DNA of 64,000 bases from a virus. Taxonomy: Duplodnaviria; Caudoviricetes. A program made the translations under genes and the position numbers. The stretch is from positions 32,001 to 96,000 of IMG/VR virus record IMGVR_UViG_3300032038_009890; one strand, written 5' to 3'. Under the pieces are notes generated by a model that was not told where the DNA came from, searched no databases, and saw only the letters and a list, made by a program, of their open reading frames with translations. This document shows positions 1 to 23,449 of the stretch, in pieces (the first letter of the stretch is position 1; the number at the start of each line of letters is the position of its first letter).

Positions 1-1620
1 ATGTCAAATGATACCCGAAATGATAAAATAGCAGATGGTGCGTATGTTGATCGTTCTAACAATGATGAAATTACTCTTGATGATAGAAAAAGAACTGGTT
101 CATACAATAATGTGCCAGAAGGATTTGCGCCACCAGAACCAACTAATAACGCGAATTACAATCAGCCAACTCCCACAATAACTTCACAGCAAGTAAATGG
201 AGGCACAAAAATAACTATCAATCTGCGCGGAAACAGTGGTGGTGACAATACATTAAAAGCTATCGCAGATGTTAATGGATATAATACCAGTCTTAATTCA
301 GTAGCTCCCAAAATTGATAGAAGGTTAATGAATGCCTTTAATGCGGCCGGATTGAAGGTAACAGTTACTGATGATAATTTTGGTGGCGAGGGAGTATTTA
401 GCAGGAAAGATGGTGGTTTGGTTCTTAGATCAGAACATACAAATGATGGTACAGCATATCATGAACTTGGGCATTTCCTTGCTGATATTGCAGGTGTCAC
501 TCGAAGTGATATGAAAGATGTATACGACAAAGAAAGAGAGAAATTCTTTGGAACATTTTATATGTATGCAAACTCTAGTGCATCAGAATTTTTTGGCGAG
601 TCTATGAAACTTTTCACAGAGAACAACGATAGGATGAAGAAAGAGATGCCGCAAACATATGCATTGATTGAAAAGGCATTGAATTCTATCAATGAAGAGA
701 AAATCAAATCTTATAAAGCTAAAGTTGCAGGTGGCTATGCAAGTGGTACATCTCGTGCGTCTAGGGGTGTTCATAAAGTAAATGAGAATGGTCTAGAAAC
801 ATTCGTAACCAAGTCTGGAACCTATATGCCATTTAGTGGTGGCGAGGGTGTAATTCCCGCAAAGGAAACCGCAAGATTAACCTCTCTTGTTGAAATGATT
901 AATTCTTATGCATTCTCGGATGATATTCAAGGAATGTCGCAAGATGTCGAAACTCTTAAGAAGGCCCAGATCATGCAGATAGAACAGCTTAAGATGGGAT
1001 TATAGAATTCTGATATAACGATGGATGAAATCGCTGAAATACAAAGTAGTATAATTGATCTTGAAAAAGCGGTTGATCAAACACTTAAGAATCTGGCGGA
1101 CGCACAAGAACGTCAATACGCCGAAGAGGCACTCGCGCGACATACTAGTCTTATGAATCAGATCGAAAGTGATGCTCGTACTATTAAATATATGAATGCA
1201 ATATTTGTTCCGCTTGAAGTATTATCTGATTATGCGAATTAGGAAAAAGATATTCAATTAAAAGAGCTTGATGTAAACTATCAAATTCTTGGTCAAATCA
1301 CAGAAAGCGTCAAGTAGATACAAGAAATAAATAGTTCTTTTGAGCAAGGGTTATTTAAGCCACAAATGCCTGATATGAGTGGATATTTGATTCCAGAGAC
1401 TTTATCTGACTCTTCTGCTTCAAGCAATAGTGGTGATATATATATTGATTCCTTAATCACCATTAATGGTAAAGTTGATGATTCGGTAGTAGGGGATATT
1501 AAAGATATTGCTCAATAGCTTGTCCAATATAGAAAATTCCAAGAAAACATTACTGCAATAGTGAGTAAGAGGCAAGCACAAGATCGCAAAATGGCGGGAG
1601 AACGGGTGCTTGTTAAGTAA
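1..1620 (+). CDS. Tail tape measure protein, C-terminal part (probably 5'-truncated by the window), with an ATLF-like HExxH zinc peptidase domain; 4 in-frame TAG read as Gln
   Basis: Track ORFs 1..1005 and 1021..1242 are the same frame, broken only by TAG, and the frame runs to TAA at 1618-1620. Motifs: AYHELGHFL...SEFFGE...PQTY, then GYASGT...VNENGLE typical of TMP C-termini. Lies directly before a Dit-like gene. Confidence 0.8.
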
Positions 1621-1628
1621 TAATTATG

Positions 1629-1659
1629 TGGGGGGTCTCTTAGGAGGCTCCCTATTTTT
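1629..1659 (+). terminator. Putative intrinsic terminator
   Basis: GGGGGTCTC-TTAG-GAGGCTCCC hairpin followed by TATTTTT, just after the TMP stop. Confidence 0.55.
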
Positions 1660-1680
1660 AAAGAAAGGGGGAAATAAAAC

Positions 1681-2649
1681 TTGGCATATTTTGAATATAA
1701 CGGAAAGACAACTGATAATATAATCTCAACCCCACTTATATTAGTTGTTCAAGATGGATTAGATGAAATAGTAACTACCAGAAGTAAAATAGAGGGGGAG
1801 AGAACCATATCCCGATATGTGACAAATGAGTATGGCACTATATATGACTCTCTTTCTTTTCAGATAACTTTAATGAAAGACCAATTTAAGCCACCAGCAA
1901 TGACCGAATAGATCACAGAAGATATGACACAAGAACAAATTCAAGAGGTATATAGACGCTATAATGAACGGGTTGATCGATTATACGAGCAATTTTAGGA
2001 TACGTTTACAACTGACGAACAAATTACCATAGAACGGTGGTTACTATCTCCAAAGTATTCGCAAGAATTAATGATGGTGAATTGTGATAATGAATATTAT
2101 TGGTATTTAGGATTGTTTACTAGCGTAGAATGGGATATTGCAAATAATGGATATATGTTCTGCAAAGCCACATTTTAGGTTAATGGTGCTTATCCATTTA
2201 AACATAATTCTTGGGGTTTTTAGAGTGAAAACACTGGTACTGAAACAACTAGCGAACATACTTTGACTTGTGACTCTCATGAAATAGAAGAATATATTTA
2301 TCCTTATATTAGAATTATACCATATGAATCCACTGGTTCGAACGATCAAACAATTACTATTGTAAATTTGACTGATGATGCGAATAGAGTATTTAAAGTA
2401 TAGAATCATGGCACAAATATTATGGAGATCGACTGCAATGGTTGTGGTATTTATCAATCTTATGAAGATGGTGGCAATTATAAGATAACAAAACAATATA
2501 AATTCTCCGAAGTTGGTTTAGGAACAAATAATACAATATACTGGCCTAGGATTGTAAGTGGAAAGAATACCATTAGGATCACAGCAAATGCTAGAATATA
2601 CTTCTTATTTAATACTCCGTTTAAAAAGGCAGGTGGTTGGTTAGCATGA
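1681..2649 (+). CDS. Distal tail (Dit)-like protein; about 5 in-frame TAG
   Basis: TTG start after an AAGGGGG SD. Fragments 1681..1911 and 2422..2649 share a frame. MAYFEYNG start, IERWLLSPK and WPRIVSGKNTIRIT resemble siphophage Dit proteins; ends TGA. Confidence 0.75.
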
Positions 2650-5600
2650 TACCTGAAAACAAACATATTTATTTAGTCTAGCCCGATTTAACCAACAGAT
2701 GTATTTTAAATGGCGTTTAGGTTGAATCAGTGGATTTCCATGCACAAGTAAAAGGATATTCAGAATTATCATTTGTCGTAGATGAATACGTATTGGTTAA
2801 CGGATAGTTAATTAAATCAAGCGGATATGATGATCTGAAGCCTTCAATGTATTTGTATCTTGAAGACATTGGATATTTTATTATGGAAACGCCAGAAATA
2901 GAAAATGATGGTAATAGAGAAACGAAATCTATAGTTGCATATTCTGCTGAAAAGGAATTTGAATATAAGGATTGGCGTGGAATTAAGATTAATTGCGGTA
3001 CAACTGATTCTCTTGAATATTCAAATACAGATGATTCGAATAAGGACGATACGTATTTTCATTATGCAATTGAATATGTTTCTATGCTAGATACTCAACA
3101 TCCAGAATTGTCGTTCCTACACTTAATATTAGACAAGGTTTCTTCTAAATGGAATATTCAATATGTTTCACCTAAACTAACTGCACATACTGTGGAAAGC
3201 ATTGAAAATTCACCTACTTTTGAATTAAGAAATGATGATACTGCAACAACGTAGATGAAACTTGCCGAGATTCGCTCCATTATCTATAACAACATACGCA
3301 CACATCGTGCAGAAGCGTTTCGAGTTATAGATGGTTATGATACTGGTGTGTTTGGAAATATTGATTTAAATAATCGACAGAAGATTATATGGACCTAGCA
3401 GAATCTTAATAAATATCCTTATGCGGCTTCATAGGCGAATGCTGAGCTAGGAATGGTTTCTACTGTTTGTGGATCGTGGCAAAACTATAGAAATTATGGG
3501 ATTTCAGTCGCTTTCTCTCCTCTTCTTTAGATAGAAAATGAATCCGAACCTGTATTACTAGAAAAAGCAAACGTATTTACTTATTTAGATCGATTAGTTG
3601 AAGAAGCTAGAAATCTTAATGAAGATGTTCTTTCAAATATCTTAGAACTTGATGTAAAAGGATTTCCTGATATAACAGATCAATTTGGTCATGTTATAAA
3701 GCAATTAATTGCCGGGGTTTCTGCAGACATTACGGCTGGTAATAGTGCAGACATTATAGCATCTGTAATGCATTATCGTGAAACAAGTGAAGATGATGTC
3801 GCGCTAAATGATTATATTTATCCATATATCTTAAATTGTTTTTCTTAGGAAAATATTGGGTATACTGATTATTCAAAACTTCCTGCAATTGATGTAGATA
3901 ATGAAAACCTTTATGCTATTATGACCAGCGAAGTTGCGCCAAGAATGTCGTGTATCTTTGTTTTTGACTATCTCAATTTTGGTATTCGCGTTTATTACAA
4001 AGACGAATTAGATTTTGATACTGGTATATTTGTAGGATTTCATAATCTTGAAAATAATTTGAGTGTGTCAGTAGATACGGATTCTATATTTACTAGATTT
4101 ACTGTAGAAGGGGATGGAGGATTAGAATTCCGAGATTATAACTACGGTGATAATACAATTATAAATTTAGATTATTTCTTAAATGAGCCGTATATGGAAG
4201 AATCTACAGTAAATAAAATTGAATCATGGTTACGAATGCGGGATACATATCGAACTGATTATACAAATCTTGCTTTGAAATATGACAGTCTATTAGAAAA
4301 GAGAGATGAACGCCAAACAAGGGAACCTTCAGACGCTTCTTACTGGACCACTTGGGATAATATGAATGTGGACTAGTTAGATAAATATTTAAAATATTTT
4401 GAAGATGAATTAACTTTGTTGCAGTAGTCCGTTGATGATAGAGACCCAAGTGAATGGTATGATACAGATGGCAATTATATTCCTATTACAAAAAATGGCG
4501 AGGTTGATCACGAGTTATATAAGAATAGATTATATCTGCGAGTAAATAGGTATGGTGGTTATTATACATATTGTGAAATCATTGAATATATTATTCCATA
4601 TATAAAATTAGCAAAGAAGAATGCTTATGTTATAGATGATGAAAAGCTTAAACCAGATACAGAAATAAATGAAAATTGGGAAATGTATGGACTATACTGG
4701 CTAGAAGGGACTCCAGAAGGAACCAAGGGATTTCTTGAGTAGTATCAACAAGAGATGGAAACACTCAGTAAATATTCAAAAAGTTGGACGGAAATGTCTC
4801 TTGATGAGAAAAAGGAAGCGGGACTAAACAATATAATCGATATAACTGCCCCATTAGCCGATCAGATAGCGCAATACGAAGAAATTCCGGAGCGTAAGAA
4901 ATATGTTCACTTAAAAGAGCAGGTCGGCGACGAGGATACTCCCGGCACGATTGTCTATCAGATCAAAAAACTTACAGAAGAGATAAAGGAAATTAATCAA
5001 CAATTAGATGAATTATTAGAACATACAAATGAATATGCAACACTGATGAGATATAATGTCACAGAAGATGAACTCGATGCTCTTTATATTCTTCCTTCTA
5101 TATTAATATAGGAGAGGAAATAGCAACTGCTAAACGAAACAGAGTTATTGGCATTTGAGACATTAATTAAAGATACAGATTATCAGAATTCAAATATTGT
5201 TTATACTAGTATTATGTCTATATCTGATAAGTTTTATCAAGAAAAATATCTATATGATGATGCGACAGACAAATTATCAGAAGTTTCACAACCACAATAT
5301 TAGTTTTCTGTGCAATTAGATAACTTTTTCAGATTACCTGATTATGCAATGTGGGTCGAAGAATTTCTTCCAGATGCATATGACCCTGTGCCGATTGGCC
5401 TTCTTAAGTTTATCCGTGTCGAAGTGCGCAGAGATTATAATGTAAAGCTTCGCGTTATAGGATATAGGTGGAACCCGTGCGAGGTAACACCAGAACTTAC
5501 TTTGGAATTTAGTAATTTCATAGTTGGTAGGTCTGGGCGTAGTGACCTGACAGAACTTTTAGAACTATCGAATTATCGTGGCTCAAAGAATAGTATCAAG

Positions 5601-7127
5601 ATAGGTAATGGTGGCACATAGAGCGAAGAAGAATATGTCATGGCCTTAATGGATATTCTTAAAGGTAATAGCCTGTTTCAGCGGACAGTCGCGAACATCG
5701 CAGGAGGAGTTACAGGCGGAACGAATGTCGAAATCGTAAGATCAATTATTGGAGATTATCTTGGTAATTATACTATTCAAACAGGCGGAACAGCTTCGTT
5801 AGATGATGTAACAGATGAAGAACTAGCAGGAAGAATCGCAGATTTTGAGAAGGGCTATTTTGATCAGATCGTTGCAAATTATATAACTACTCAGGATATC
5901 CATGCAGAGTCTGGTTCATTCAAAGACTTATCTGCTATGATTATCTAGGCACAGAAAGGATATTTTGATAGTCTTACAGCTAAGAGCGTGACAGCAGACG
6001 CAGTAAGGACTGTTCTACTTGAGGCAACTAAAGCTGAGATTGAAACATTGGTCAGTGATGACATTATAGCAAATACTCTTAATACTTTTGCGTCAAATGC
6101 TGTAACAAGCACGGTGAATACGCAATTCGTAAAAGACTTAATCGCGGGACAAATCTCTGTCGGTGATCTTGCGGCAGGTGATATTATTATTTCAGAGAAT
6201 CTCAGGATTATCTCTGATAATGGACGGATGATAATGGACGGAACCGCCCTTCAAATCATGGGCAAAACAGCATCTGGAGAAGAATATACAGGAATATAGC
6301 TTGGATATGATACGAATAATAACCCAAGCTTGATAATTAGGAACGAAAACAATGCTGTTATTCTTGACCCGAATGGAATTACAGAGAATGCAATCGCAGA
6401 TCAGCTTATTAGGAACAGTATGATAAAGGACGGAACATTGGGAAAAGAGAAACTAGGGTTTACGATTATTGAGCCAAATGACCAAGGCGGCATTGATATT
6501 ACTCAATTATATGATGGAGAAGGAAATTTATGGGGTCAGTAGTACGCGTCTTTTAAGAATGAAGTGACCCAGTTTATTGAAGATATGGCGTATGTTGGCG
6601 CGTCTGTTGAGCTTCACGGTCAGCAAGTGTTTGTTGAAAGAGAGGGGACGATTTCGCCAGATAATATTACTCTTAAGGCGGAAGTAAAACATGCAACGAT
6701 AGACAAGTGGTTTATAGATGATGTAGAAGATACGATTCATTTGAATGCTTCTAAAGATTAGATTACTATCCCCTCTTCTCTGATTGATGGCAAGAAAACT
6801 CTTACTGTTAGAGTGCAATGTGCAGAGAACAATGTGTATGACATTATGACTCTTTACAGAGTGAGCGATGGAGAATCCACGTATACAATTATTTTATCAT
6901 CATCTAAAGGAGAGTTATTCAAAGAAGATGATACAACTTCAGTAACTTGTACGGTTTATTATGGTTCCAATATTGTCACGGCAAAGAAGTATTATTGGAC
7001 AATAACTGTTACAAATGGTGATGAAGAAATTATTCACACAGAAGAAACAACTACGAACGTTCTTGAAAACATCCCAATCAATTCACAAAACCTAATTGTA
7101 AATGTGCAATGTGATGTGGAAATCTAA
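2646..7127 (+). CDS. Large tail/baseplate hub-spike (Tal-like) protein, about 1493 aa; about 19 in-frame TAG
   Basis: ATGA overlap with the Dit stop. Nine track fragments (2847, 3921, 4755, 5310, 5640, 5988, 6330, 6564, 6813) share one frame; all end in TAG except the last (TAA 7125-7127). Canonical TMP-Dit-Tal order. Confidence 0.8.
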
Positions 7128-7139: not shown

Positions 7140-8228
7140 TTGCGTATTAGTTCAACACCGCTAACATTGGCGCGAATTAACGATGGTTAGCAAGGTATTC
7201 CGGGCGAAAATTCCTATATATGGATAAAATTTGCCACATAGGATGATTATTCAGATATTACGGATAACCCAACAAACGCCATATATATGGGTACTGCATA
7301 CGGAAAATCAGAGGAACAAGAGTCAAATAATCCGAATGATTACAAATGGGTAAAAATTCGGGGAGATGACGGAGAACCATCTTACACTGTAATCTTGGAT
7401 AATGAAAACGTAACATTTGTTACGGACGAAGGAAATATGCCGATTGAGGATTAGGCCTACCCTCTTAACTTTATAATTTTTAAAGGCACTGAACAAATAA
7501 CAGATTATAAGATATTATATAACAAAATTACTGTTCCGGATGGATTGTTTTTAAAAGAGCAGAGCGAAGAAGGATAGATGACTGTCTATTGCACACTCGG
7601 CACTCGTATATTAAATAACTACGGTACTATTGAAATACCGCTACTTTTGTTTGATACTATCCCAATAACTAAGGTATTTTCTTATACGATTAGCAGATCA
7701 TCTGAAGTAGTCAAATATACTTGGTTTAAATATTCTAAGTATAATAATCCATCTAAAGAAGAGATGTTTGATGAAACATCGCCAGAGATGCAATATATTG
7801 GTGTTGCTTATAATAAGGACATTTTCACACCTTCTGATGATCCCGATGACTACGAATGGCTCCCAATGAACAACAAGGGAGATTATGGTGTAAAGGTTGA
7901 TATACTTTATTATATGTCTTTATATAATACTGTAGACAATATTCCATTACCACAAGATGAGTATGAACTACTTAATGTTCAATCAGGCGTAGTCTCTGTT
8001 CTTTAGGGAAACATTGCATTTGGTCATATTGGATGGAGTACGACAAAACCAGAACAAGAAGATGGATATTATTTGTGGTGTGCTATTTGTGTAACTATGA
8101 ATGATGGTCAATATTACTTATTTGGTTAGCCGGTTCTTCTTAATGAGTGGCAACAGCGCAAAATTGGCGGAACACAATTAATTAGGAATTCTAAGACATT
8201 GATAGATTCTAGAATCTATTGGTTTTAA
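7140..8228 (+). CDS. Minor tail/fibre protein; about 6 in-frame TAG
   Basis: GGAGGTG SD plus TTG start. NDG(TAG)QGIPGENSYIWIKFA, YMGTAYGK...NPNDYKW (motif repeated at YIGVAYNK...DPDDYEW) and WSTTKPEQEDGYYLW are typical Firmicutes phage tail-fibre motifs; ends TAA. Confidence 0.75.
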
Positions 8229-8257: not shown

Positions 8258-8662
8258 ATGAAAGCAACTATATCTTATTATGTAGCAATTAGTCTGTTAA
8301 ACGAATTAAATAAGTATTCATTCATTACTGGTAAACTTGGGTTTGCCATTTCAAGGACCAAGAATGTATTAAGGAACGAAGTCTAGATTTTTAATGAAGA
8401 AAGAAATAAATTATTGCAGAAATACGGTAAACTAGACGAAAACGGTAATTATTTTGTTGACGAAAAAGATGAAAACTTTGCTGCATTTAATGATGAAATT
8501 ATTCCTCTTGTAGAAACAAAATTTGAAATGAATATATATCAGGTTACGCAAGAAGAATTTGATAAAGCAGATATTTATAATGAGTCGTTGTCTGTCGAGG
8601 ATTATGATAGATTACAGGCTTTATTTATAGAACGAGTAGTAAAATAGGAAGAGACGGTCTAA
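8258..8662 (+). CDS. Phage tail-region protein (DUF1617-like); 2 TAG
   Basis: AAGGAG SD, ATG at 8258 in frame with 8414..8647; ERNKLLQKYG motif; TAA at 8660-8662. Confidence 0.6.
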
Positions 8663-8693
8663 GTCAGTTGCCTAAAAGTGAGGTGAGTTGACA

Positions 8694-8925: not shown

Positions 8926-11900
8926 TTGGCGAATAAAATAACATCAGAGACAGTGCTGAATCCTTCTGGTGTTTTTGATATTAGTTCGTGCATAGTCACC
9001 GAAACTAAGAGTGATCTAATTATTTCTGACTGTATGTCTTAGATTACTAAATATGTATTTTAGTTCTGGATCAGATCTGAGAACTATAATTATAATATAA
9101 TTTTTAATTGTGACACAACATCCAAAGTAATTGCCGTCACACCAGAGTGGCAATACTTTTTCATAGTATTTGACGTAGAGAATATATCAAATATTATTCT
9201 GACATTTCCAAAAGGAAAGTTTTATGTCTATAACACTAAGCTAGAAATAGGTTCCTAGCCTACTGATTGGTCCCCGCATCCAGAAGACGGAAACTAGTTA
9301 TACAGAGAATTAAATGGAAAAGTTGAGCAAATGCTCATACAAAACACGTCTACTATTGATAGAATGACGAATCTTGTTGATAAAGTAAATATGACAATCG
9401 AGAATTCCATGTCTAGAACGGAGTACCAGACTTCGATCAATGGCATCTTATCTTCAATTGATGAAGACATGGAGAATCTAAAAGATGGAGAAAATAAATG
9501 GTATGTTACCATATATAATAAAGCCGACTTCAATAAGTTGACAAAACTACCAGATGAAGAGACTGACTGGAGTGATATTGATAATCCTAATCAATCTGAT
9601 GACGAGCCAGATGATCCATCTCCCACAGAAGAACCAGATGATATAGATACTTTGGAAGCCGATGATCGTGATAGATATGACATGAAGATATTTATGCTAG
9701 AAAATGGCGATCTTAATCCTGTAGATGAATATGCAGTTGATGATAATAACATTGCCATGCGTATAGACGGCAAAGGTAGAGTAATATATTATTACACGTT
9801 CGTAAAGTTCGGCAAAGATTATAAGGCAACTTTGAGTTGTTCTTTCAGGAAAGCTACTTGTTATCTAAATGGAACGCAACTTATCAGTGAAAGCATTATA
9901 GACACGATGGATGTTATATTTGATTTCAAAGCTGGCTGGAATTTAATAGAGATTATATCTAATGAAGGTAATTTCTCGTTCAAAAACCCTATATCTAAAA
10001 TGGCCGAATGTCTGCGGATGAATTACGCAGTTGCTGTACCTACTAGCAGAAACGTAAAGATGCAGGTAAAAGGATCTGGTATATATCAGAACCTAGATAG
10101 GATATTATCAGAAGTATATAAATACGAAATAGAATACTATACTGATTCTAATGGATAGCGTAAATCTCGTAAAGTAATGAAACAAAGTCGTATTAAATAG
10201 ACGGCTGATATGATTCAACTTTTGGTTAAGGATATTTTTGGTAATTACTCCGAGTTTACACTTACTCCACAGTTTATTCAAGCCATCACACAGCAATTTA
10301 TTGTGACAGATCCGATAACTGGAGAAAGAGTAATTATCTAGAATGGATAGATTTAGGCAAACAGTATAGATTCTACCCTATTATCTACTGATGCTATCAG
10401 GTCAAGAAACTTTGATGGTGGTGTAGTAAAACAACGAGAAGCAATAGATCCAGATACTGGTGAAACTGTTATGGAGGATTATATAGATCTAGATGATATT
10501 GATTTTGATCCAGAAAAAAATAGAATCTTTCCTGCTCATGGTACTTTTTTAGACTTGGCAAATGGGAACTACTATTCTCCAAGTCTTGTCGTGATAAACG
10601 AATACAAAAAGCAAGTTGAAGACGAAGAAGCTACTGGTGGCGTGAGAGTTATAGATGTGACAAATAAAGCCTACTTTAAAGGAGACGTCTACGCAGATAC
10701 TTTTACCACTAACTCTGGTAACATTGGGCCTTGGCATATAACTGATACTGCGCTTTATAGAGGTATCGATGCTCTTGGACAAAGAGATATTACTTCTCAG
10801 GATCGTTCCTATAATGCTTATATGGGAGACCTAGGATTTTCGATAAGTGATGCTATTGTCTATGATGCAAATACGAATTCTTTGACGCTTAGGCCAAACT
10901 CGTTAGAACTAAGCGCTCCAGATGTTTAGGCTATAACTTTCTAGGCAGTCAACGGGAATACTATATATTATCGTTAGAGTGGCGTTCCTGTTGCGGGAAA
11001 TAATCCAAATGAACCCGCGATGTACTGGAATGAGGGCGAATACTCCTCTCATCTGGATGAATTGTGCTATAGAATTGATACTGGTGAGTTATATCGCTTT
11101 GAGAAACTAAAGAATTCTCAAGGTAATTCGGTATTATATGTGATCAATTTTAATTCAAACAGTAAGCTTCGCGTTGGTTCATCTTCTCCCATTGATTACG
11201 TAGAAATATATTATGTTTATAATAAAAAGACATATAGAGTCGCAACACGTCTTGCTTCTCAAAATAGTTTTTAGAATGCGCCAATCATTATTCCTACTGA
11301 TGATTTTTATGTATATCTTCACATCGAGGATTATGCTTCATCTGGTCTAATAGATTACTATGGTTTTAAAATTGATTCAGTTACTACGACAACAGGAACA
11401 GCAACAGCGACGGTTTCGATTGTGGATTCTGAAAAGCGTTAGACAATCAACACAGAAGATGCAGAGCATTCTGGTAATGTTACATTGGCAATTAATTCTA
11501 ATCTTCCTTATTGTTCTATGGAGAGACTAGAAACCGGAATATTCCCGTAGACAACGCACCCATATGCACAGAAGTCGTTTGATAAGGTATGGCATGTTAA
11601 ATCAGGAATTAGTAGCTTAGAATCTTATCAGTGGGTAAAGATAGAGAATGCTGAGCTAATTGAAGCGGCGGCAAATGCAAGAAAAGCTTTAAGTTTTATG
11701 CATTACGATGCAACGAATGGGCTTATTTTTCATAATGGGGTTGCAAAGAATATGCCTAATGATACATGGACAGTCAATGATTTGCAGAAACTAGACGGTG
11801 GGAATGCACGACTTACTACTTCTGGAATGGATATATATAATGGCAATACACTTCTTGCACATTATGGAAATACAACAGAATTCTATAAATATACGAATGG

Positions 11901-14184
11901 GAACAAATATACTGCCGCAACGCTTGGAGCCAATGGTTTTTCTATTTATGACGGTACTATTTCACTTGGTACTTTAACATCTCTTAACTTTGGTAATACT
12001 AATCAAAAAGGTTTATATATTAATAACAATGGGTTATTTACTGTTGGCAATAAGTAGTCATACATTAAGTATGATGGAGAAAATATTATTATTAATGCCA
12101 GTAGTATTTCTTTTGGTGACGATAGTCAAGAGATTATGACGGTTATAAATGATTTACAATCTCAAGTTGATGACAATTCTGTATCTTTGGATCATAATAT
12201 GCGCTTCCATGGAAATGGTGTTCCTACTAATTCGAATTATCCAGAAGAAGATTGGCAAACTGGAGCAGATAAAGATAAATATGTCGGAAGCCTATACTAT
12301 GATTTGTTAACAGGAAAGAAATATTATTATCTAAAGACTGATAATTTATAGCTTAATTTTACGTTATCAGTTCAAGAAGGTAATATTTCTGGTGACTATA
12401 TTGGAATATTTTATGATTTGGATGGTGTTACATATTCAAAAAGAATAAACGTTTCCGATATTGCGAATTCGGATAAAAGTGCTATCGTTGGTTCCACTAG
12501 ATTTAAGGTTGTATATTATTCATCTTATTCGACTACTTCCTCGCATAAGTGTACAATCATGATGCGGGAAGAAAAAACAAAAAATAATGCTTTTGAAACT
12601 ACCGATTTAGAATTTCCAAGTGATGTTATATTTGATGGACAATCAAATTATACAATAGCTTTAAGCGGATCATATCTAAACAATGATTTGAACGGTAATA
12701 CTAGATATCGTATTTATGATACAATTGATGATGATATTTATGAATGGATAGAGCTATAGGATGAGGATATTGCAACTGCGAATACGAATGCTACAAATGC
12801 GCTAAATTTAGCTAATCAAGTTGATGCTAATAATTATTTCTTTATGTCTACTTATGGTCTTGCAGTTACTCCAGTACGCATTAGGAACGTAAATCAATTA
12901 AACGAACTGTTGGCCCCTTACGTAAATCTGACCAATAGTGCGTTGTAGATTATTTAGGACGGTCATATGATCGCTTCGTATGGAGAAACCACTACTTTTT
13001 ATAACTCTAGCGGAACTGTGTCTGCGACGTTGGGTAGTAATGGGTTTAGTATAAGTAATGGGAATGCCGGTGGTATACATATTATTAATGATAGAATATA
13101 TTCTGGTAGTCATTTGAATATAAATGATACTGCCAATGGATTCTGCTTTTTGGACGATGGGTCAATTAGCATTGGTAATTCAAGTAATTATATAAAGTTT
13201 GTAAATGGAAATCTTTCTATATCGATAGGTAATTAGGATATAAATGCTGTGCTTTCTGAGGCTTCGAATGCAGGTAAAACGGCTACTAATTATCTATTTG
13301 AAAGTAATGGATTGATTGTCGCACCTAATGCAAATTATTCATCTTCTTCTTATTTACATATAGGTTCCAGTAGTATTGATATATATTCTAATGGTAATAA
13401 AGCTGTTACATATGGAACGAATATTTAGTTCTTTTCCAAAGGAAGCATTGACTTCTTAGAGTATTATCCAGATTTAAACGTTTCCGAGGAGCTATTATGG
13501 ATAGATTCTAATGGTATAAACTTTGCAAATAATTATAACATAAATATAGATGGAATCTATTACGGGAATGATTTAATATTAAATAGGCTTACATCTACTG
13601 TTACATGTAGGTCTGTTAGCATGTATTTAAATACAACCAATACGTCAGAGGTATTATCTCTTTCTGCATCAAACGGGCTTTCCTATACCAATGGTGCATA
13701 TTATAGAATGACTGGATTTCATCTATCAAATTCATTATATGGAAATGGAACGTCAGGAGAATTAAGTTGTACCACTTTATATGCCGATAATATTTATTAT
13801 AACAATGTGGTTGAAAAGTTAGAAGGAGAAGATCTTTCTGATGAACGTTTTAAAAATATAGTAAACTATGATAATGATAAATACAAACAATTATTCATGT
13901 CTATAAATCCTATTGAATTTACATGGATTGATTCTCATGATGAAGATATACATATTGGTGTTGGCGCACAAACCATATTATATAGTTTGAATAAATTGCA
14001 AATTGAGAATTCATCTTTTGTTAAGTATTCTGGCGTCATTGATAGGTATAGTGTTAATTATAAGGAATTAATGTTCATGTCTATTCCAATAGTACAAGAA
14101 CATGAATTAGAAATATAGTCTCTTAAATCAGAAATCGAGTCACTTAAAGGTGAAATCAAACGCCTAAGAGAGAAGGTGAAATAA
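8926..14184 (+). CDS. Long tail fibre/receptor-binding protein, about 1752 aa, with C-terminal intramolecular chaperone (peptidase S74); about 23 in-frame TAG
   Basis: GGAGGTG SD plus TTG. Eight track fragments (9331 to 13621) share a frame and each ends in TAG. KLEIGS(TAG)PTDWSPHPED motif; LSDERFKNIV S74 autocleavage signature; terminal coiled coil EI(TAG)SLKSEIESLK; TAA 14182-14184. Confidence 0.85.
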
Positions 14185-14381: not shown

Positions 14382-14395
14382 ATATAGGGAGAATT

Positions 14396-15331
14396 ATGGA
14401 AAATAATTATAAAATTTATGCTTATGTAAATAAAATAAACGGAAAGATTTATATTGGTCAAACAAAACAATCTTTAAATGCTAGAGCTGGGAAAGAAGGA
14501 AAAGGATATAGGTAGTGTGTACTATTTTATAACGCTATTTCGAAATATGGATTTACCAATTTTATACCTATAGTACTAATAGAAGGATTAAATAAAGATA
14601 CAGCTGATTATTTAGAAATATCATTAATCGAAGAATTTAATTCAACTAATCCAGATTATGGATATAATATCTCAAAAGGAGGTCAATACTCTACAAACGG
14701 AATTGATATAAGTGGTCAAAGATTTGGAAAATTAATTGCTAGACACATAGTTGATGATCCAAGAAGAGGAAGATATTGGTATTGTGATTGTGATTGTGGA
14801 GGACATTCTATTGTTAGATAGGAACATTTGCGAGATGGCACAACTACTGCATGCACAGATTGCACGTTAAATAGTTTACATGTTATTCCTAACAAAATCG
14901 AAATAATTGATGATAATACTATTAAAGTTTTAATGACAGATGGGTCTTTTTTAATCGATTCAGAAACATATAATAATATAAAGTAGTACAGATGGTATAG
15001 GTCGGGTGAATATGGAGTTTCTTCAACTACGGAGGAAAGAAAATTGTTGTTGAAATATTTATTTCCAAGCATAAATAGGAATAATATTTCCAGATATGTT
15101 AAATTTAAAGATAATAACAGATTTAATTATTGCAAGGATAATTTATATGTAGAAATACCAAAAAATGCTTCGAAAAATGATTGGTATTTATTTTTGAACG
15201 AAAATAATACTTATATTCATTTTATTAGGCATTCGTCAAACAGACCTTGGCGTAATGTTAAATTAAACCAATCGTTTCATACTTATAATGAAGCAAAATT
15301 AGCTAGAAAGGAGTGTGATATAGATGGCTAA
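14396..15331 (+). CDS. Free-standing GIY-YIG homing endonuclease with a CxCxC module; 3 TAG
   Basis: YKIYAYVNKINGKIYIGQT...FYNAISKYG...YGYNI, then DISGQRFGKL...WYCDCDCG; in frame with 15044..15331 (TAA). Confidence 0.8.
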
Positions 15332-16880
15332 TATTTCAGCTGAACAATGGCAAATATTATTAAATATCTTAGGAGCCGTAGAAACTGGCGGACAGATTTA
15401 TGGTCAAAGAGATTATGGTGATTATACCGAAGCTTATACGAATAATATTGCAGAGAACTCTATTACTATCGGTGCTTATTAGGAATTTAGTTCTCTTGCT
15501 AAAGGACTTCTTTAGGAAATTAAAGATAAATATCCAGATGTTTTTGTTCAATATGATAATGCAGGTATTGCTAATGATTTACAAAAGTTTTCTTGGGTTG
15601 GTTATAATCCAAGCAAATCTTCTGCAAAAGCAAAAGCAATCGTTAATATAATTAACTCTACTGAAGGGCGCAAGGTACAAGATGATAGATTCATCCGATA
15701 GATGAAAGAACATATTGCGCTAGGCGAAAAGTTAGGTGTAAATGATGTGGATGCTCTCTTTGAAATCTGTAATATTTCACACTAGGGCGGTGATGGTGCT
15801 GTTAAGCGAATTATCTCCAAAACTTAGAAGCCTTATACTTTAGACCATATTTATCAAGCACTTTGTACGGATAATGTTCCAAATCAAGTTGGAACCTACA
15901 AAAATCGTCAATCAAAAGTTTATCAGTGGCTCAAGTAGTATATGCCAAAGCAATAGACTCGGCAGACTGTCGTATACAACATCAATCGTGGAACTAGCGT
16001 AGATGATGCACTTAACGTGGCTCGTGGATGGCTTGGACTTTCAAAAGCAAATGGTTCTCATCGAGTAATTATAGATACTTATAACTCTTATCTTCCACAT
16101 CCAAGATCCTACGCTGTAACCTATACAGACGACTATTGTGCTACAACCATCAGTGCAATCTTCGTAAAACTCAATGCTGTCAATTTAATAGGTAATATCG
16201 AATGTTCTGTAGAACGCATGATTGAAGATTGCTTTAAGCCAATCGGGATTTGGATAGAAGATGAATCTAAAAATCTTCCGCAAAAGGGAGACATTATTTG
16301 TTTCAATTGGGACAGCAATTAGCCAAACTCAGATAATTAGGGTTGGGCAGATCATGTTGGTATCATTGAGGATGTTTCTAATGGAATTATCACTACTATA
16401 GAAGGCAATACTTCTGGTGGTGTCGTTGCTCGTAAGCAATATCCTATAAACTACAGTTTTATCAGGGGTTTCGCTCGTCCGAAATATGGCTCAGATTCCT
16501 CGACAACTCCTACCATAGAAGACATGCCTGTATAGCCCACTATAGAGATCTTAGACCCGGTTCCCACTCCTACTCAACAAACTGTCCGGCCCACTCCCGC
16601 AACGCCGTCTCAGACCCCTTCTGGCTCGTCTACGGTGACTTCTAGTGGCCTGAGTAAGGAGAGGAAATTTTGGGGAGTATGCGTGGCAGATGCACTTAAT
16701 GTGAGGAAATATGCGGGGAAAGAATATTCAATTCTTCAGAGTATTCCTATGATTTATTATGGTCAAGAAGTTGAAGTACTAGATACCGTAAAAGCAAATG
16801 ATGGAAAGGAATGGTACTATATTCGGATTAACGGGACAACTTACGGCTTCGCATCTGCCGAGTACATCGTAAAGAAATGA
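15324..16880 (+). CDS. Endolysin: N-terminal lysozyme-like domain, CHAP amidase and SH3b, 518 aa; about 10 TAG
   Basis: AAGGAG SD. AVETGGQIYG...ITIGAY(TAG); CHAP YCATTISA...GDIICFNW...DHVGIIE...IEGNT; Pro/Thr linker; SH3b ALNVRKYAG...WYYIRINGTTYGFASAEYI; ends TGA. Confidence 0.85.
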
Positions 16881-16941: not shown

Positions 16942-17493
16942 ATGCAGGAAGTCGAAGAGGTCGTTGAAATGGCGACTACTCAAGGTAACAATAATATTAT
17001 TGTAACTATTATAGTATTGCTTATAGCAATTGTATTTGTTGCTGAACACATAATGAAATTTAGAGAGATTTTTGGAATTCGTACCAAATGGGATGATCAT
17101 GAACAATAGCAAACAAAAGAAATATTAGAGCTTAAATAGGAAGTCGTAAAAATTAAGCAAGAGGTTGAAGATATCAAAAGCACTAATAAACATGATACAA
17201 ATAAACGAATTGAATTTGAAGAATGCGTGACTAAGTCACTGAATACAATAAAAAATGATATGCTTGACGAAAAGATTTAGCGCATGAGGTCTGAAATACT
17301 AGACTTTGCGGCAGGTCTGAAGATAAAAGATTACAACGAAGAAAGCTTCTCACATATTTTTGATGTTTATTCTAGGTATAACAAGGTTATCCGTGAGAAT
17401 AATATGACTAATGGGTATGTTGATCTTAATATGGATAAAATTAGAAATGACTATGCTCTAAGACATAATAACACCCAATATGTGGAAGAGTGA
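16942..17493 (+). CDS. Lysis-module membrane protein (one TM helix plus coiled coil; holin-associated); 3 TAG
   Basis: ATG 16942 in frame with 17284..17493; IIVTIIVLLIAIVFVA TM segment; RSEILDFA...NGY C-terminal region. Confidence 0.65.
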
Positions 17494-17543: not shown

Positions 17544-17789
17544 ATGAGTGAAAAGAAAAAGATAAAGTTTACCTCACTGATTGTCGCCCTTGTTCTTATT
17601 GAGGCGGCAATTCTTACGGGTATATATGTCTGGGTATTCTGTACTTATGGACATGTTCCAGACACACTTATAGTCGCAACTTTTGGATTCCTTGGCACAG
17701 AATTAGGGATTTGCGGGGGTGTAACCATGAATGGAAACAAGTATGATTATTTAAATAATAGTATTCCACCACAAGGAGGTGTTGGATAA
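17544..17789 (+). CDS. Small two-TM membrane protein, holin-like
   Basis: Basic N-terminus, two hydrophobic segments around VPDTLI, located in the lysis module. Confidence 0.55.
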   Translation: MSEKKKIKFTSLIVALVLIEAAILTGIYVWVFCTYGHVPDTLIVATFGFLGTELGICGGVTMNGNKYDYLNNSIPPQGGVG

Positions 17790-18098
17790 ATGGAAAATGG
17801 TATGATTCTCTTAGCAATTACAACTGCACTTACTTCTCTCGCTACGGAAGGCGTAAAAAAGACCTTACATCTTTCTTCTGATAAGGTTTCGTACAATATT
17901 CTTGTACTTGTAATTTCAGTCATCAGTGCTTTGCTTGTTGGATTTGGATATATTATTTTAGCAGATATTGTGATTACTGCTAAAGTCGTAGTTTATCTTG
18001 TTGCTTTGACGCTTATGTCCGCACTTGCTGCAAGTACGAGTTACGACAAATTAATACAAACGCTTAAACAATTAGATTTTTTGAAGAATCAAAAATAA
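17790..18098 (+). CDS. Putative holin (three TM helices)
   Basis: 102 aa; TSLATEGVKK...SYDKLIQTLKQ pattern; follows the endolysin. Confidence 0.65.
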   Translation: MENGMILLAITTALTSLATEGVKKTLHLSSDKVSYNILVLVISVISALLVGFGYIILADIVITAKVVVYLVALTLMSALAASTSYDKLIQTLKQLDFLKNQK

Positions 18099-18154: not shown

Positions 18155-19450
18155 ATGAATAAATATTTGATTGAAAATGTAAATAGTGACGATGTTGATT
18201 TTGATCATGTGAATGATGATTTACCGAGGTATGGTGAAGGGTTTGATTATAATGGAGAGAAGTCGAATTGGTGTGTATATGCACATATAAATAAGACAAA
18301 TGAAAAAATATATATTGGGATTAGTTCAAATTTAAAACATAGATGGAGTAATGGTGGAAACAAATATTGTGGCTGTGATGCGTTTTATAACGCTATACAA
18401 AAATATGGATTTGATGGGTTTAAACATATTGTCATAATAAATGGACTAACAGAATCTATGGCTCGTCTTATAGAGGATGATTTAATCAAAAAGTATAATA
18501 CTCTGGTTTGGAAAGAAGATGGCAATGGATATAATATAAGCTTTGAATATTTGTTTGGTCGTAAAAAAGAAAAAGGAATGGAATTACATAGGTACAAATA
18601 TTATCAATACGATTTAAATGGTATTTATATTCAATCATTTGATAGTTTAGTATAGATTAATAATTTATTTAATGTTAGTTTTGGAAATAAATGCGTTAAG
18701 CGTTGCTTAGAAAGAGAACATCATTTTGCTTTTGGTTTTTTATGGTCAACTACATTTTATGAATAGCTTGATCCTTTCAGGCCAACTGATATAAAATTCT
18801 GCGATGAATATCATAAACCAACGCATGATAAATACGGTCAAATTGTACAGTTATCTATTGATGGTAATTTAGTAAAAACATATAATAATGTATATCATTA
18901 TACTTTCGATTCTATAATCATGGATTCAGTTTTAAAATGTTGCAGAAATATTAAGCATACATATAATGGTTATATATGGATGTTTATAAGCGATTATTCA
19001 AATCAAGATATTCTGTTTAATAGAATTTAGTTAGCTAGTGATGAATATAAAAAATTTTCCAATAATCTTGTACGTTCTCAATCAAAAGCTGTTTTAGCCA
19101 GAAATATAAGCAACAATAACACTATTCAATTTGATAGTATATCTGATGCGTCTAGACAAACCGGATATCCTCAACAGTCTATTTCAAATGCATGTAAAAA
19201 CAACTCAATTTATAAAGGATATTCTTGGTCGTTTTTAAATAATTCATCGTCAAAGATATCAAAAAGGCGTGTAGTTCAAATTGATATTCGCAGTAATGAA
19301 ATAATTAATATATTTGATAGTATTACTGATGCTAATAATTACATAAAAGTTAGCAAAGCTTCCTCTGAAATAAGTGCTTGTTGTAGAGGAAAGCGAAAAA
19401 CATCATATGGATATATATGGAAATATTATGAAGATATTATAAAGGAGTGA
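18155..19450 (+). CDS. GIY-YIG homing endonuclease with four NUMOD1/IENR1-like repeats, 431 aa; 3 TAG
   Basis: WCVYAHINKTNEKIYIGIS; repeats YQYDLNG..FDSL, VQLSIDG, FDSISDASRQTG and VVQID..FDSITDA..ISACCRGKRKTSYGYIW; TGA 19448-19450. Confidence 0.85.
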
Positions 19451-19455
19451 TAAGT

Positions 19456-19977
19456 ATGAAACTTAAAGCAACCCCCAATATTAAAGGGAGCATTGTAGAA
19501 ACTACAGTGTCCATAGATGATTTTGGTTCTTCAGAATATTCCGCAGAGGAAGAAAAGGAATTGTTCGAAGACTACTCGATGATATTAGACTACGGAAAGT
19601 TGCTGTTTTCTAGGTGGGTAACCGTAGATGGCCACAAAAACCCAGTAATCGTAGAAGCTCCTCAAGAGCAAGAGCCAACTAACGAACCTCCAACGGAACC
19701 CACAGAAGAAACTACTGGGCCAGATAACATTGTACTTGCAATGCCGATTGGTGAATCTTACGAACTTGATGCAGATTTTGAACTTCATTACGCTGTAGAT
19801 GTGCGCGCTCTTGGTGACCAGTATAAGATGTTTAAAAATATCAAGGATAACGTATGTTTAGCTAAGGCTATGTGTTTAGTTTTTGAAGATTGTATTATTT
19901 CCTATATCAAAGATCAGTTTGAAATTGCCAAGACTCATAAAGACGATTTTGAAACTGTTCGTTATTATGAGATTTAA
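19456..19977 (+). CDS. Hypothetical acidic protein, probably virion-associated
   Basis: AAGGAG SD; open frame with an EPTNEPPTEPTEE linker; ends TAA. Confidence 0.6.
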   Translation: MKLKATPNIKGSIVETTVSIDDFGSSEYSAEEEKELFEDYSMILDYGKLLFSRWVTVDGHKNPVIVEAPQEQEPTNEPPTEPTEETTGPDNIVLAMPIGESYELDADFELHYAVDVRALGDQYKMFKNIKDNVCLAKAMCLVFEDCIISYIKDQFEIAKTHKDDFETVRYYEI

Positions 19978-20010
19978 TTACCCTTATGTATCAGAAAGAA
20001 GGTGATATAA

Positions 20011-20988
20011 TTGGATTACCATTACACAGATTATATAATTACCCAAGAAGGAACAAACTTAACTACGGATTCAGCCATCAAACTTTAGAAGATGGAGAAT
20101 AAAGTCACCCGTTTCATTTTTAAGCTAGAGGATTGGCTTCCTGAAACTGCACGTCTTTATGTTGCATTTCTCAATCCAGAAACAAAGCGCTATCATTATG
20201 AGCCTTTGCTTAATAATGGAGAGGATTACTACTATGTTGTAGGAACGAAGCTATCTTATTATCCTAGTAAACACAAAATGTTGCTTATTGGCGTAACTCC
20301 TTCGTTTATTTTAGATGACAATGTTATTTTGGATATAACGAATACTGTATATGTATCAAGAGAATTCAATAAAATAGTTGTCATTGATAATTTCATTTCC
20401 GATGAAGCAAGAGAGCTTTCATATCCAAATATAGAGTATGCCCTCGATGATTTTATGAGCATTTACAATACAAATATAATGCTTTCTATTTAGACGGCAG
20501 ATGATGCGACTAAATGTGATGAAGACATTAAACGTTGCGAGGAAATTCTTGTTACATGCACCGAAATTCAAGAAGAATGCGATGCTGATGTAGGAACATG
20601 CTCTAACGCTGTAATCACTTGTACAGAGTTAGAAGAACAGTGCCGACAAGATAATGAAGAAGCCAGTGAGATACTTGCATAGAATAGAGAAACATTAGTT
20701 TCTTGTAATACCATTCTTAATTAGGCACAACAGAGTTTTGATTCATGTATTGTTCAGGCTCAAAACGCAGCTAACTCGGCATCTTCAGCCAATGCTGCTT
20801 CTAACAATGCTAGTTCTACACTTACACAATGCAGAAATATGCTTACTCAATGCCAACAAGTTTTAACACAAGTAAATCAAATGGTGGCTACTCTACAAAC
20901 GAATTATGACACATATCTTTCTCAAATGAGATAGGAATATGAAACTATGATGGAAAATCTTAGAAATGCTGGAGGAGGTGAGCCGTAA
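20011..20988 (+). CDS. BppU-like baseplate/fibre protein with a Cys-heptad coiled coil; 5 TAG
   Basis: AAGGTG SD plus TTG, in frame with 20092..20493; continues to TAA 20986-20988 (TAATG overlap). Confidence 0.7.
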
Positions 20989-21326
20989 TGTATGTTATCA
21001 ATGAAATATCTAAACATCAAACTGATATCTCAATTATTAAAGGAGATACATTTAGAGAATTAATTCGTATTTCTGACGAAGCTAGGCTCACCTATGTTCC
21101 TGAAGCCGCAGATAAAATCATTTTCTATGTATATAATAAATATACTGACGAAAAACCTTTGTTTGAAAAAGAAATACCATATAATTCAATGGTGTTATAG
21201 TTATCAGCAAAGGAAACTAGTAAGATGAAATTAGGTAAGTATGTGTATAAAATTATACTAAACAGAAGAAATGGTGATAAAGATACGTATTTACATGGTA
21301 GTTTTAACGTTGAGGGGGTGATTTAA
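20988..21326 (+). CDS. Small BppU N-domain-like structural protein; 1 TAG
   Basis: ISIIKGDTF...D.IIFYV...ETSKMKLGKYVY...GDKDT...GSFNVE pattern; TAA 21324-21326. Confidence 0.65.
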
Positions 21327-21902
21327 TTGGTAAATTCTGTAATAACTGGTAATAAGACACTAGGTGGCACTACTATGGGAGCATGGAATTAGGGCCTAGA
21401 TGCCTACAGTTTGGCAGTGCGCTATCAAAATTATAAGGGAACACTGCTTGAATGGTTGGATTCTCTCAAAGCCATCTCTCCCACATTCTCAGAACCAGTC
21501 ATAGATACCGAAAACGGCACAACGAGCTTCACCATGAATGACGAAAATGGGGGACATACTATCACTCTCCGCAACGGTCTAGATATCAAAGTAGAATCCA
21601 CAGAAGTCACAGAAGATGGTACTCTAGTAACCTTTAACGATGGCACGACAGTCCTTGTCGGCAACGGTCAAAAGGGTGATCAAGGCGATCCCGGCAGAGA
21701 AATAATCTTCCGCAACGTAGATAACACTCTCTACTGGCGTTACGCAACAGATGATCCAGAGTGGAAACAACTTGCAGACCTCATGCAAATTATGGAGTCA
21801 GTATATACTGCTCATCCGCCTTTTATCTATGTGGATGAACTACCAGACCCTGCGGATGCAATAGAGGGTGTAGAATACAGATTAAGGAATGGAGGTGATT
21901 AA
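21327..21902 (+). CDS. Collagen-like fibre protein; 1 TAG
   Basis: GLDAYSLAV...GTLLEWLDSLK motif, GQKGDQGDPGRE triplets, LYWRY...W. Confidence 0.7.
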
Positions 21903-21904
21903 TC

Positions 21905-23449
21905 TTGGCAAAATCTTATAAATCATATATGCTCTCAGCGGATAAAAAGTCATGGGTCCCGCTGTTTGATGGTGAAAGCTATAATACTCTGAGCGACACT
22001 CCTATTAAGAATCTTTACGGGCAAGCCGAAGAAGTTTATGTAGATATCGGTGCTCTGAACGAGGGCAAGTATCGTATTTCTGGTTACTATAAAGTAGATG
22101 ATAATTCCGAACTGCAAAACGCAGAGGATGTCCCTGTTTTTGTAAATGTCTATACTGATAGTACAACTCCTGAGAAAAAATATGCGGTCTTTGAGAATGT
22201 TAGTTCTGATAGTTTCGGGCAGACTATATATACTATTGAAAATTCCGCCATTACAGATACTCATCATGTCGGCGCAGATGATACTGCCATCCCTGAGATT
22301 CATGAAGATATAAATAGTTTAGATACGCATCTGAGCGAACTAAATAATAATTTTAATAGTTCTGTGGCAGATATTAACAGTACTATCGCAAGTAACTATC
22401 AAGAACTTTCTAGTGAGATAGAACAGTCTGCATCAGAAATCAACGAAATATTAGATAGTCAAGTTACTAGACTGAATGGAAAAATAGAAAGTGAAACCTT
22501 TTCTGTATCAGAAGCATTAAGCAGTGAAGTTACCAGATTAGAAGATAAAATAGATAGCGAAACATCTTTCGTAAGTGATATGCTTACTAGCGAAGTTACC
22601 AGACTTGATAGCACTCTCACAGATCATTCTGAGTCACTTTCAGATATAGATAGTGAAATAGCTGTAATTGACTCTCGTCTTGATGGGCATGATACATCTA
22701 TCTCAGAAATCAATGAGGATATAGCCCTGCTCAATAATACCGAAGAAACAGAAGGTTCTGTTCGCTAGATTGCAAAATCCTACGCCGATGATACAGTAGA
22801 AACCACAACAATCACTCTGGCAGTCGCTGACCAACCTGATCTCAATGACTCTACCACATATGTCCTTTCTCAAGGCGGGGCCGAAATAGGTCGTGTACAT
22901 ATTGCAAAAGACCTCGTAGCTACTTAGGGCGAGTTAGTTACAGAAGATGCAAGTGGTAATTCTGGTATGTTTATCAGGATGACCGTAGCTAATGGAACGC
23001 CTTTTTATATCCCTGTTGATGAGTTAATTGACACTTATCAAGGTTCTGGTGATGTAGGTACTGTATCCAGTGGCATCAGTATTAACGTAACCAATGGTGT
23101 TGTCTCTGCAACTATTGTTTCTTTAGACGGTACTAAACTTGATGCGGGAAGTGTAGGTTTTGATAAGCTTGCACAGGCCGTATAGAGTAAAATCAATAGC
23201 ATTGATGATGTTTATGACGAGTTAATGGGAAATGCATAGACAGATACTGTAACCTCAAAAACAATAGAAGGTCTGGTAAAGAAAACAGATATGACTAGCA
23301 ACACGCTCTCTAATTTGGATACTTATGTTGGAACAATTCCGCAAGAAAGTGATGCTACTACTGTAGTTGATTACATAGATGAAAAGAAAAATGAAACTAT
23401 AGATAATCTTAAACAATATTTGGTTTGGCATAGGTTCACAGAATCTTAA
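21905..23449 (+). CDS. Fibre-like coiled-coil structural protein, 514 aa; 4 TAG
   Basis: Fragments 21905..22768 and 22967..23185 are in frame; 22-aa repeats (S[QE]VTRL..KI.SET); VGTIPQESDATTVVDYIDEK; TAA 23447-23449. Confidence 0.75.

Follow-up and report, generated by a model that had tools for sequence, protein, structure and literature searches.

What does TAG mean to a phage whose tail, fibre and lysis genes are filled with it, and what would read it? The question is raised by a stretch of 64,000 nucleotides (the window), which covers bases 32001-96000 of the 217,075-bp IMG/VR record IMGVR_UViG_3300032038_009890. The record is classed as a provirus, has a GC content of 35% and is 98% complete by CheckV estimate. 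The plus-strand arm of the window, positions 1-23449, is the 3' end of a late-gene block of about 96 kb. Under the standard bacterial code (table 11) this arm falls apart into some 30 short plus-strand open reading frames (ORFs); with TAG taken as a sense codon, these fuse into long ones. We propose with high confidence that TAG in the late block is a sense codon for glutamine, that only TAA and TGA terminate, and that the decoder is a phage-encoded tRNA with the anticodon CUA, tRNA(CUA), working together with the glutaminyl-tRNA synthetase (GlnRS) of the host.

The 17 merged ORFs of the arm, 7,567 codons in length, contain 91 in-frame TAG. We also looked for frames that TAA or TGA would interrupt as often as TAG, and found neither triplet in frame even once. 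A preliminary description of this DNA had named TAG as the only separator of same-frame ORF fragments, with about 90 cases counted by hand, and this stands. In the three plus frames of the arm, TAG makes up 26% of stop triplets; the probability that 91 of 91 interruptions would all be TAG is about 1e-53.

Refinement of the gene set leaves 19 tightly packed plus-strand genes, again with 91 in-frame TAG. The lysin start was moved to the ATG at 15324, which has the Shine-Dalgarno sequence AAAGGAG before it and shares bases with the TAA of the GIY-YIG gene upstream. This start is preferred over the ORF from 15288, which we regard as an ORF-calling artefact, and dropped 2 of the 12 TAG; the small ORFs 8688-8903 and 14184-14381, with one TAG each, were added. 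Every merged gene terminates at TAA or TGA, most starts are preceded by a GGAGGTG-type Shine-Dalgarno sequence, and TAATG and GTGA overlaps occur at gene junctions; Shine-Dalgarno sequences, TAATG overlaps and TAA/TGA ends had been described beforehand. The coding fraction of the arm reaches 98.6% with TAG as sense. Along the genes, the placement of TAG shows a weak 5' skew (Kolmogorov-Smirnov p = 0.08).

Three genes used in identifying the inserted residue are the following:

Window 15324..16880, plus strand: endolysin with a conserved N-terminal domain, CHAP and SH3; 10 TAG, the densest among the window's large genes.
Window 50514..52358, minus strand: 614-aa nuclease-ligase ORF of the early block, with a triplicated module; 3 TAG.
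Genome 214037-215284 (L022:18037-19281), plus strand: 415-aa reverse transcriptase (RT) of the diversity-generating retroelement (DGR) type; 13 TAG.

The lysin, the RT and the portal protein align end to end with their homologs across their own TAG. For the lysin, codons were read directly from the DNA of 80 homologous loci in GTDB species genomes, mostly of Blautia, Faecalicatena, Dorea, Butyrivibrio, Roseburia and other Clostridia. The TAG columns 65, 138 and 166 (numbered from the 15288 start) hold a genuine CAG or CAA in 75, 69 and 60 of these 80 bacterial loci, respectively. Over all lysin TAG columns glutamine is found in 41.5% of cases, against 39.3% at the query's own CAA/CAG columns. 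Among 120 database homologs, glutamine occupies 33% of the TAG columns in the RT and 52% in the lysin, whereas it makes up 3.9% of all lysin-homolog residues; one RT TAG column is glutamine in 120 of 120. The enrichment for glutamine expected from the preliminary description is therefore present. The closest database homologs (P0121, P0122, P0242-P0250) are themselves translations with TAG as glutamine, so that the 120-homolog tallies are partly circular unless the DNA is checked.

Two relatives (L027 and L028) carry a syntenic arm in independent assemblies (Logan SRR30827636, SRR16020867), with 28-63% protein identity. The phage's own TAG face CAA, CAG or TAG in these relatives at 23 of 77 sites, and its own CAA/CAG codons do so at 44 of 154; conversely, the relatives' TAG face CAA, CAG or TAG of the phage at 18 of 53 sites. 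At some lysin columns the independent assemblies share TAG, at others they have CAA/CAG. Since TAG and CAA/CAG exchange at similar rates across the relatives, TAG behaves, by this comparison, as a third glutamine codon. The same equivalence is visible within a single protein: the repeated module of the 614-aa ORF reads NLIG(TAG)KFG, DLTG(TAG)VFG and DLTG(CAA)TFG, and DISG(CAA)RFG occurs at nt 14717 of the window. These motifs had been pointed out beforehand, together with the contexts DG(TAG)QGIPG and EI(TAG)SLK, and all are present as claimed. The glutamine assignment made there is thus supported by the lysin columns, by codon exchange with the relatives and by the repeat module.

The preliminary description placed the recoding in the tail, lysis and fibre arm. 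It is present there but not confined to it: the recoded plus-strand block spans the whole of the roughly 96-kb late region, from about 176.7 kb of the genome to the end of the record and then from base 1 to 55,449. At the junction, the last ORF (genome 215315-217075) leaves the record end exactly in frame with the first one (1-219), so the record is either circularly permuted or arbitrarily cut.

Coding density rises when TAG is read as sense, from 0.76 under table 11 to 0.89 genome-wide; the values are 0.78 with TGA as sense and 0.83 with TAA. Most of this gain falls within 1-55 kb and 180-217 kb of the genome, and between 30 and 55 kb the density goes from 0.5-0.6 to 0.94-1.0. TAG occurs in 44 of the 55 late genes of at least 100 aa (249 TAG in 28,911 codons), with 36 in one 6,327-aa ORF. 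The window arm is richer in TAG than the remaining late block (1.23% versus 0.73% of codons), and TAG accounts for about 30% of its glutamine codons, compared with about 19% in the whole late block. When genes of at least 150 aa are ranked by TAG density, a 183-aa ORF (genome 199914-200465, 9 TAG) is followed by the DGR-type RT in second place; the endolysin too is among the densest.

The minus-strand early block, 55.8-136 kb of the genome, has almost no TAG. Only 11 of 80 early ORFs carry any, many at codons 3-15 and others in nuclease genes; the former probably precede the true starts. Early table-11 ORFs of at least 100 aa end with TAA in 43 cases, TGA in 40 and TAG in 3, and two of these three are internal TAG of nuclease genes: TAG is thus practically never a terminator in this genome. 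CAG is frequent in the TAG-free early genes (312 CAG). As the early genes and the integrase avoid TAG both as sense codon and as stop, they should be translatable by an unmodified host.

What reads TAG in the late block? A default ARAGORN scan of the genome reports ten tRNAs, none of them with CUA. With introns allowed, the program finds one more gene:

Genome 177847-178131 (L021:1847-2131), plus strand: amber-suppressor tRNA(CUA), intron-split.

It stands at the head of the recoded block, after a 261-aa ORF and just before the terminase/portal region. In the tRNA, an anticodon stem of 5 bp carries the loop CU-CUA-AA, the T-loop is the canonical UUCGAAU, and the variable arm is long. A 197-nt insert, with the predicted exon ends at genome 177880 and 178078, divides the gene after U35 and separates position 35 of the anticodon from position 36. 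The insert matches the Rfam family Intron_gpI (RF00028) over model positions 1-253 with 53.5 bits (gathering score 50, E 1.6e-12) and is the highest-scoring of the genome's four group I matches. The match stops 23 nt before the intron's final G, and a GNRA-capped hairpin occupies the gap. Exon 1 ends in ...CUCU and the insert in ...UAAG; a GGA in the 5' part of the intron can pair with the exon's UCU. Once joined, the 88-nt form is called tRNA(CUA) at the default ARAGORN threshold: the default scan misses the gene because the group I intron splits it. Promoter and terminator predictions in the surroundings of the tRNA were no more numerous than in shuffled sequence.

Besides a CUA tRNA, the preliminary description had considered a GlnRS and a release factor elsewhere in the genome. 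The first exists, in split form; the phage has neither of the other two. Searches of the phage for RF-1, PCRF and class Ic synthetase domains returned nothing above threshold, the nearest being a PCRF-like hit within one of the giant tape-measure ORFs (14 bits, E 0.004). A GlnRS-type protein of about 560 aa (PF03950) is encoded in 5 of 5 Lachnospiraceae genomes holding lysin homologs, and the same family has no match in the control genomes without GlnRS, those of Bacillus subtilis and Lactococcus lactis.

The spliced tRNA would display an A1/C72 mismatch, G2-C71, G3-C70, G10 and U35. This combination, with its weak 1:72 pair, presumably favours GlnRS, if the rules established for E. coli apply. 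The class II arm and A73 do not favour GlnRS, and in view of them we file the molecule not as a tRNA-Gln derivative but as an amber suppressor whose descent is uncertain. Its acceptance of glutamine is suggested by the codon evidence rather than by the tRNA itself.

Taken together, the following course of events can be proposed. The phage would make its own amber-suppressor tRNA from the gene at the head of the late block, and the RNA would first have to self-splice, its anticodon being divided by the intron. Host GlnRS would then charge the spliced tRNA with glutamine, and the charged tRNA would compete with the host release factor 1 (RF1) at UAG. Before it accumulates, the messages of the tail, fibre, endolysin, homing-endonuclease and DGR RT genes would stop at their first UAG. 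In this way the code switch would keep late and lytic functions under a translational lock, as in the model of Borges et al. A further and rather unlikely version is that the switch is gated by the ribozyme, with the only convincing UAG decoder arising once the intron has left the anticodon, and with splicing, or what controls it, timing some 96 kb of late genes, and that host GlnRS accepts a class II tRNA through its acceptor end and U35.

Several observations weigh against this proposal. The insertion of glutamine, the splicing of the intron and the charging of the tRNA are predictions from sequence alone, and the circularity of the database tallies is removed for the lysin only, through the 80 bacterial loci. 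The candidate host is named from lysin homologs alone. The tRNA has A73 instead of G73, and its 21-nt variable arm gives it a class II body like that of Leu, Ser and Tyr tRNAs. It resembles none of the other phage tRNAs (52-64% identity). In BLAST against five Lachnospiraceae genomes, the spliced form gave only insignificant short matches (best E 0.3), and the exact pattern of its 3' half (T-arm plus acceptor) was not found in IMG/VR or the JGI metagenomes. In four relatives, the 10 kb on either side of the portal gene contain no CUA tRNA. The two holin-like genes at 17544-18098 of the window have no TAG, compared with 10 in the nearby endolysin, which means that the lock, if real, is on the lysin and not on every lysis gene. 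Finally, a second CUA candidate appears, at lowered ARAGORN thresholds only:

Genome c[123565-123639] (L017:7565-7639), minus strand: weak CUA candidate with the 8-nt loop AGUCUAAG, U-CUA-A inside it, and the T-loop AGCAUAA.

The Rfam tRNA model does not match it, with E values of up to 5 allowed. It may serve as a second decoder of UAG or read the quadruplet UAGA, or it may be nothing.

The class II body of the tRNA brings up another assignment, in which glutamine is not inserted, or not alone, and UAG is read as Leu, Ser, Tyr or a mixture, the tRNA being charged by host LeuRS, SerRS or TyrRS. The long variable arm, A73 and the dissimilarity to the phage's own tRNA-Gln(UUG) are in line with it; so are the RT TAG columns 73 and 385, where Y, S or L is commonest among homologs, and the lysin columns 138 and 166, where L comes second. 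The conserved TAG columns of the RT and the lysin are nonetheless glutamine, in the proportions given above, and TAG swaps with CAA/CAG across relatives at the rate of CAA/CAG themselves. The acceptor end is of the GlnRS type as well (unpaired 1:72, G2-C71, G3-C70, with G10 and U35), by the identity rules of E. coli GlnRS. We consider a residue other than glutamine very improbable.

If glutamine is accepted, the phage may still have no decoder of its own: a near-cognate host tRNA-Gln(CUG) or a host suppressor would read UAG, perhaps with RF1 weakened by a phage factor, and the split tRNA would be a relic. Splicing of tRNA(CUA) is, after all, deduced from the gene's sequence; the tRNA was not found in the four portal neighbourhoods, nor its 3' half in IMG/VR and the JGI metagenomes; and suppressor tRNAs went undetected in about 60% of TAG-recoded phages in published surveys (10.1101/2021.08.26.457843). 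On the other side, the cloverleaf is intact, the anticodon loop canonical, the intron scores above the Rfam gathering score and the gene sits at the head of the recoded block; the roughly 250 sense TAG, 36 of them in one 6,327-aa ORF, require efficient decoding. Near-cognate read-through is far too weak for such a load. We judge this reading very improbable indeed. Practically no weight remains for an artefact, that is, systematic C-to-T errors at CAG or nonsense mutations accumulated in a dead prophage. The classification of the record as a provirus would suit decay, but the 91 interruptions include no TAA and no TGA, the TAG are limited to one strand block while the TAG-free early genes are rich in CAG, TAG recurs at the same columns of the lysin in relatives assembled independently, and all portal relatives looked up translate only with TAG as glutamine. 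Reading by tRNA(CUA) with glutamine is accordingly the explanation we retain.

Other tRNA genes of the phage are unusual too. Several of them have, in or near the anticodon loop, an insert of about 50-67 nt, which is less than a group I intron would need, and one tRNA-like element has no anticodon arm (genome 124069-124208, 125265-125378, 127213-127331 and 127844-127905, minus strand). An AGCA-type T-loop (AGCAUAA, AGCAUCA, AGCAAAG) replaces UUCRAAU in the phage tRNAs for Glu, Gln, Asp and Thr (genome 127632-127705, 127997-128069, 176425-176500 and 179030-179101). The tRNA-Lys(UUU) at genome 128141-128228 has a long variable arm. Two low-threshold ARAGORN calls of 'Pyl(cta)' were rejected as noise: c[85235-85329] lies inside the ORF at genome 84349-85452, and c[118863-120621] would need a 1675-nt 'intron'.

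Group I introns also occur in protein-coding regions of the relatives' portal and lysin neighbourhoods. In the head-gene regions they were located at L117:8587-8910, L121:19348-19626 and L123:15288-15633, some of them beside GIY-YIG genes. The relatives' loci L117, L119, L121 and L123 come from the contigs ENA ERZ12302817, ERZ12302819, ERZ28655269 and ERZ28653742. By these matches the phage clade is intron-rich as a whole. The lysin neighbourhoods of L027 and L028 contain no CUA tRNA.

The remaining genes of the arm and its border, in window coordinates, are the following:

1..1620, plus strand: 3' end of an 815-aa ORF that starts at genome 31173, downstream of giant tape-measure ORFs; 4 TAG in the window; ends with TAA; no family match.
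1681..2649, plus strand: tail protein of 322 aa in the Dit position, with 5 TAG and a TGA end; matched weakly, below cut-off (E 0.002), by Pfam DUF6558 ('phage tail protein N-terminal domain').
2637..7127, plus strand: tail protein of 1496 aa in the Tal position, with 19 TAG and a TAA end; no family match; C-terminus matches L028.
7140..8228, plus strand: 362-aa virion/tail protein; 6 TAG, including that of DG(TAG)QGIPG; PHROG tail and virion structural matches; 41% identity to L028.
8258-8662 and 8688-8903, plus strand: two small ORFs, of 134 aa with 2 TAG and 71 aa with 1 TAG.
8926..14184, plus strand: 1752-aa tail fibre; 23 TAG; ends with TAA; C-terminal intramolecular chaperone domain (Pfam Peptidase_S74, residues 1638-1684).
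14184-14381, plus strand: 65-aa ORF; 1 TAG.
14378-15331, plus strand: GIY-YIG homing endonuclease of 317 aa; 3 TAG; contains DISG(CAA)RFG.
16942-17493, plus strand: membrane protein after the lysin, with one transmembrane-like segment; 3 TAG; assigned by hydropathy only, no family match.
17544-17789 and 17790-18098, plus strand: two holin-like membrane proteins; 0 TAG; assigned by hydropathy only, no family match.
18155..19450, plus strand: GIY-YIG/NUMOD homing endonuclease of 431 aa; 3 TAG.
19447-19977 (0 TAG), 20011-20988 (5 TAG), 20988-21326 (1 TAG), 21327-21902 (1 TAG) and 21905-23449 (4 TAG), plus strand: last five late genes, of coiled-coil/structural type, syntenic with L027 and L028.
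23811..25007, minus strand: tyrosine integrase, TAG-free (Pfam Phage_integrase, E 9e-15); here the recoded block ends and the minus-strand block in standard code begins.

Guanylate kinase and dUTPase genes lie beyond the integrase, and the integrase synteny is the same in L027 and L028. Upstream of the window, PHROG tape-measure families (phrog_4211) match the two giant ORFs, genome 1711-10287 and genome 11734-30717, and genome 183592-185163 is matched by a portal family. The order of tape measure, Dit, Tal, fibre and lysis genes given in the preliminary description holds for the upstream tape measure, the Peptidase_S74 fibre and the CHAP/SH3 endolysin; Dit has one weak match to its credit and Tal is without a family match. 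Its remark that standard (table 11) annotation misses the recoding is borne out by the portal call for this phage in the protein database, which is cut to 424 of 523 aa. The same portal gene is listed in that database on a 223,429-bp contig.

We class the phage as an SPbeta-like, integrase-bearing, 217-kb phage of the siphovirus type. Its host, as the lysin homologs suggest, is most likely a member of the Lachnospiraceae or of other Clostridia. Portal homologs with 73-79% identity are found on 140-215-kb contigs, and every one looked up translates only with TAG as glutamine. Their neighbourhoods hold the SPbeta-derived Pfam families YonJ, YonG, YonD, YonB, YomW and YomU. The portals of GenBank phages are more distant, 25-28% identical among the best 15 of 72 matches, and belong to large siphoviruses of Bacillota. 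Relatives sought in IMG/VR gave none with the 1496-aa tail protein and two distant ones only with the lysin.

The phenomenon itself is known, as the preliminary description had said, and the instance is new, in a poorly described lineage. Borges et al. (10.1101/2021.08.26.457843) described late-gene recoding with a TAG-free integrase, strongly recoded lysis and homing-endonuclease genes and reliance on host synthetases; they found suppressor tRNAs in only 40% of the genomes with recoded TAG and proposed noncanonical tRNAs for the shortfall. Yutin et al. (PMC7886860) gave the same account for crAss-like phages, in which TAG-to-Gln was proven by metaproteomics (Peters et al., PMC9523058). The present phage resembles such code 15-type gut phages (crAss-like, Lak and 'gemstone' clades) in its TAG-bearing structural and lysis genes, its standard-code replication genes and integrase, and its avoidance of TAG as a terminator; also in its low GC content of 35%, its recoded homing endonucleases, its lack of a synthetase and its suppressor tRNA beside the recoded block. 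It differs in lineage, being SPbeta-like with a likely Lachnospiraceae host, and in a suppressor tRNA hidden by a group I intron. Moreover, some Lak and Agate phages have release factor 2 (10.1101/2021.08.26.457843), whereas this phage has no release factor.

A parallel of the same virion type is phAss-1 (Phassvirus, 136 kb; PMC10607447), a TAG-recoded siphovirus-type gut phage with a very long tape measure, a suggested host in Clostridia/Eubacteriales and no synthetase of its own. In contrast, phAss-1 has three ordinary tRNA-Sup(CTA) found by tRNAscan-SE, and its genome is 80 kb smaller (PMC10607447). No Phassvirus record is among the best 15 of the 72 GenBank phage portal matches.

Group I introns in the anticodon loops of bacterial tRNAs are familiar from the cyanobacterial and plastid tRNA-Leu(UAA) and from the tRNA-Ile of Azoarcus. 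The intron described here is similar to these in its length of about 200 nt, its place in the anticodon loop, the U at the end of the 5' exon and the final G. What sets it apart is the gene it interrupts: an amber suppressor, in a phage that would depend on it for its code switch. A literature search found no paper reporting an intron-split amber suppressor tRNA in a phage. The split decoder is the one less ordinary detail of this system, of unproven regulatory meaning; the intron could be a regulator of the switch or merely a tolerated parasite. Interruption by an intron offers one concrete reason why suppressor tRNAs are detected in only about 40% of TAG-recoded phages. If GlnRS does charge it, the class II decoder would exemplify in nature what is classically known as the mischarged amber suppressor.

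For the study of this lineage, the practical consequence is that table 11 fragments the tail, fibre, lysin, portal, tape-measure and DGR genes of the phage, and that annotation, host-range prediction or endolysin mining must use TAG as glutamine. Recoding of the RT would also mean, if the lock is true, that diversification is tied to the late, recoded phase. Altogether, the list of code-switching phages gains a large lineage of probable Lachnospiraceae phages, SPbeta-like and equipped with an integrase, in which the relatives on 140-215-kb contigs are likewise recoded.

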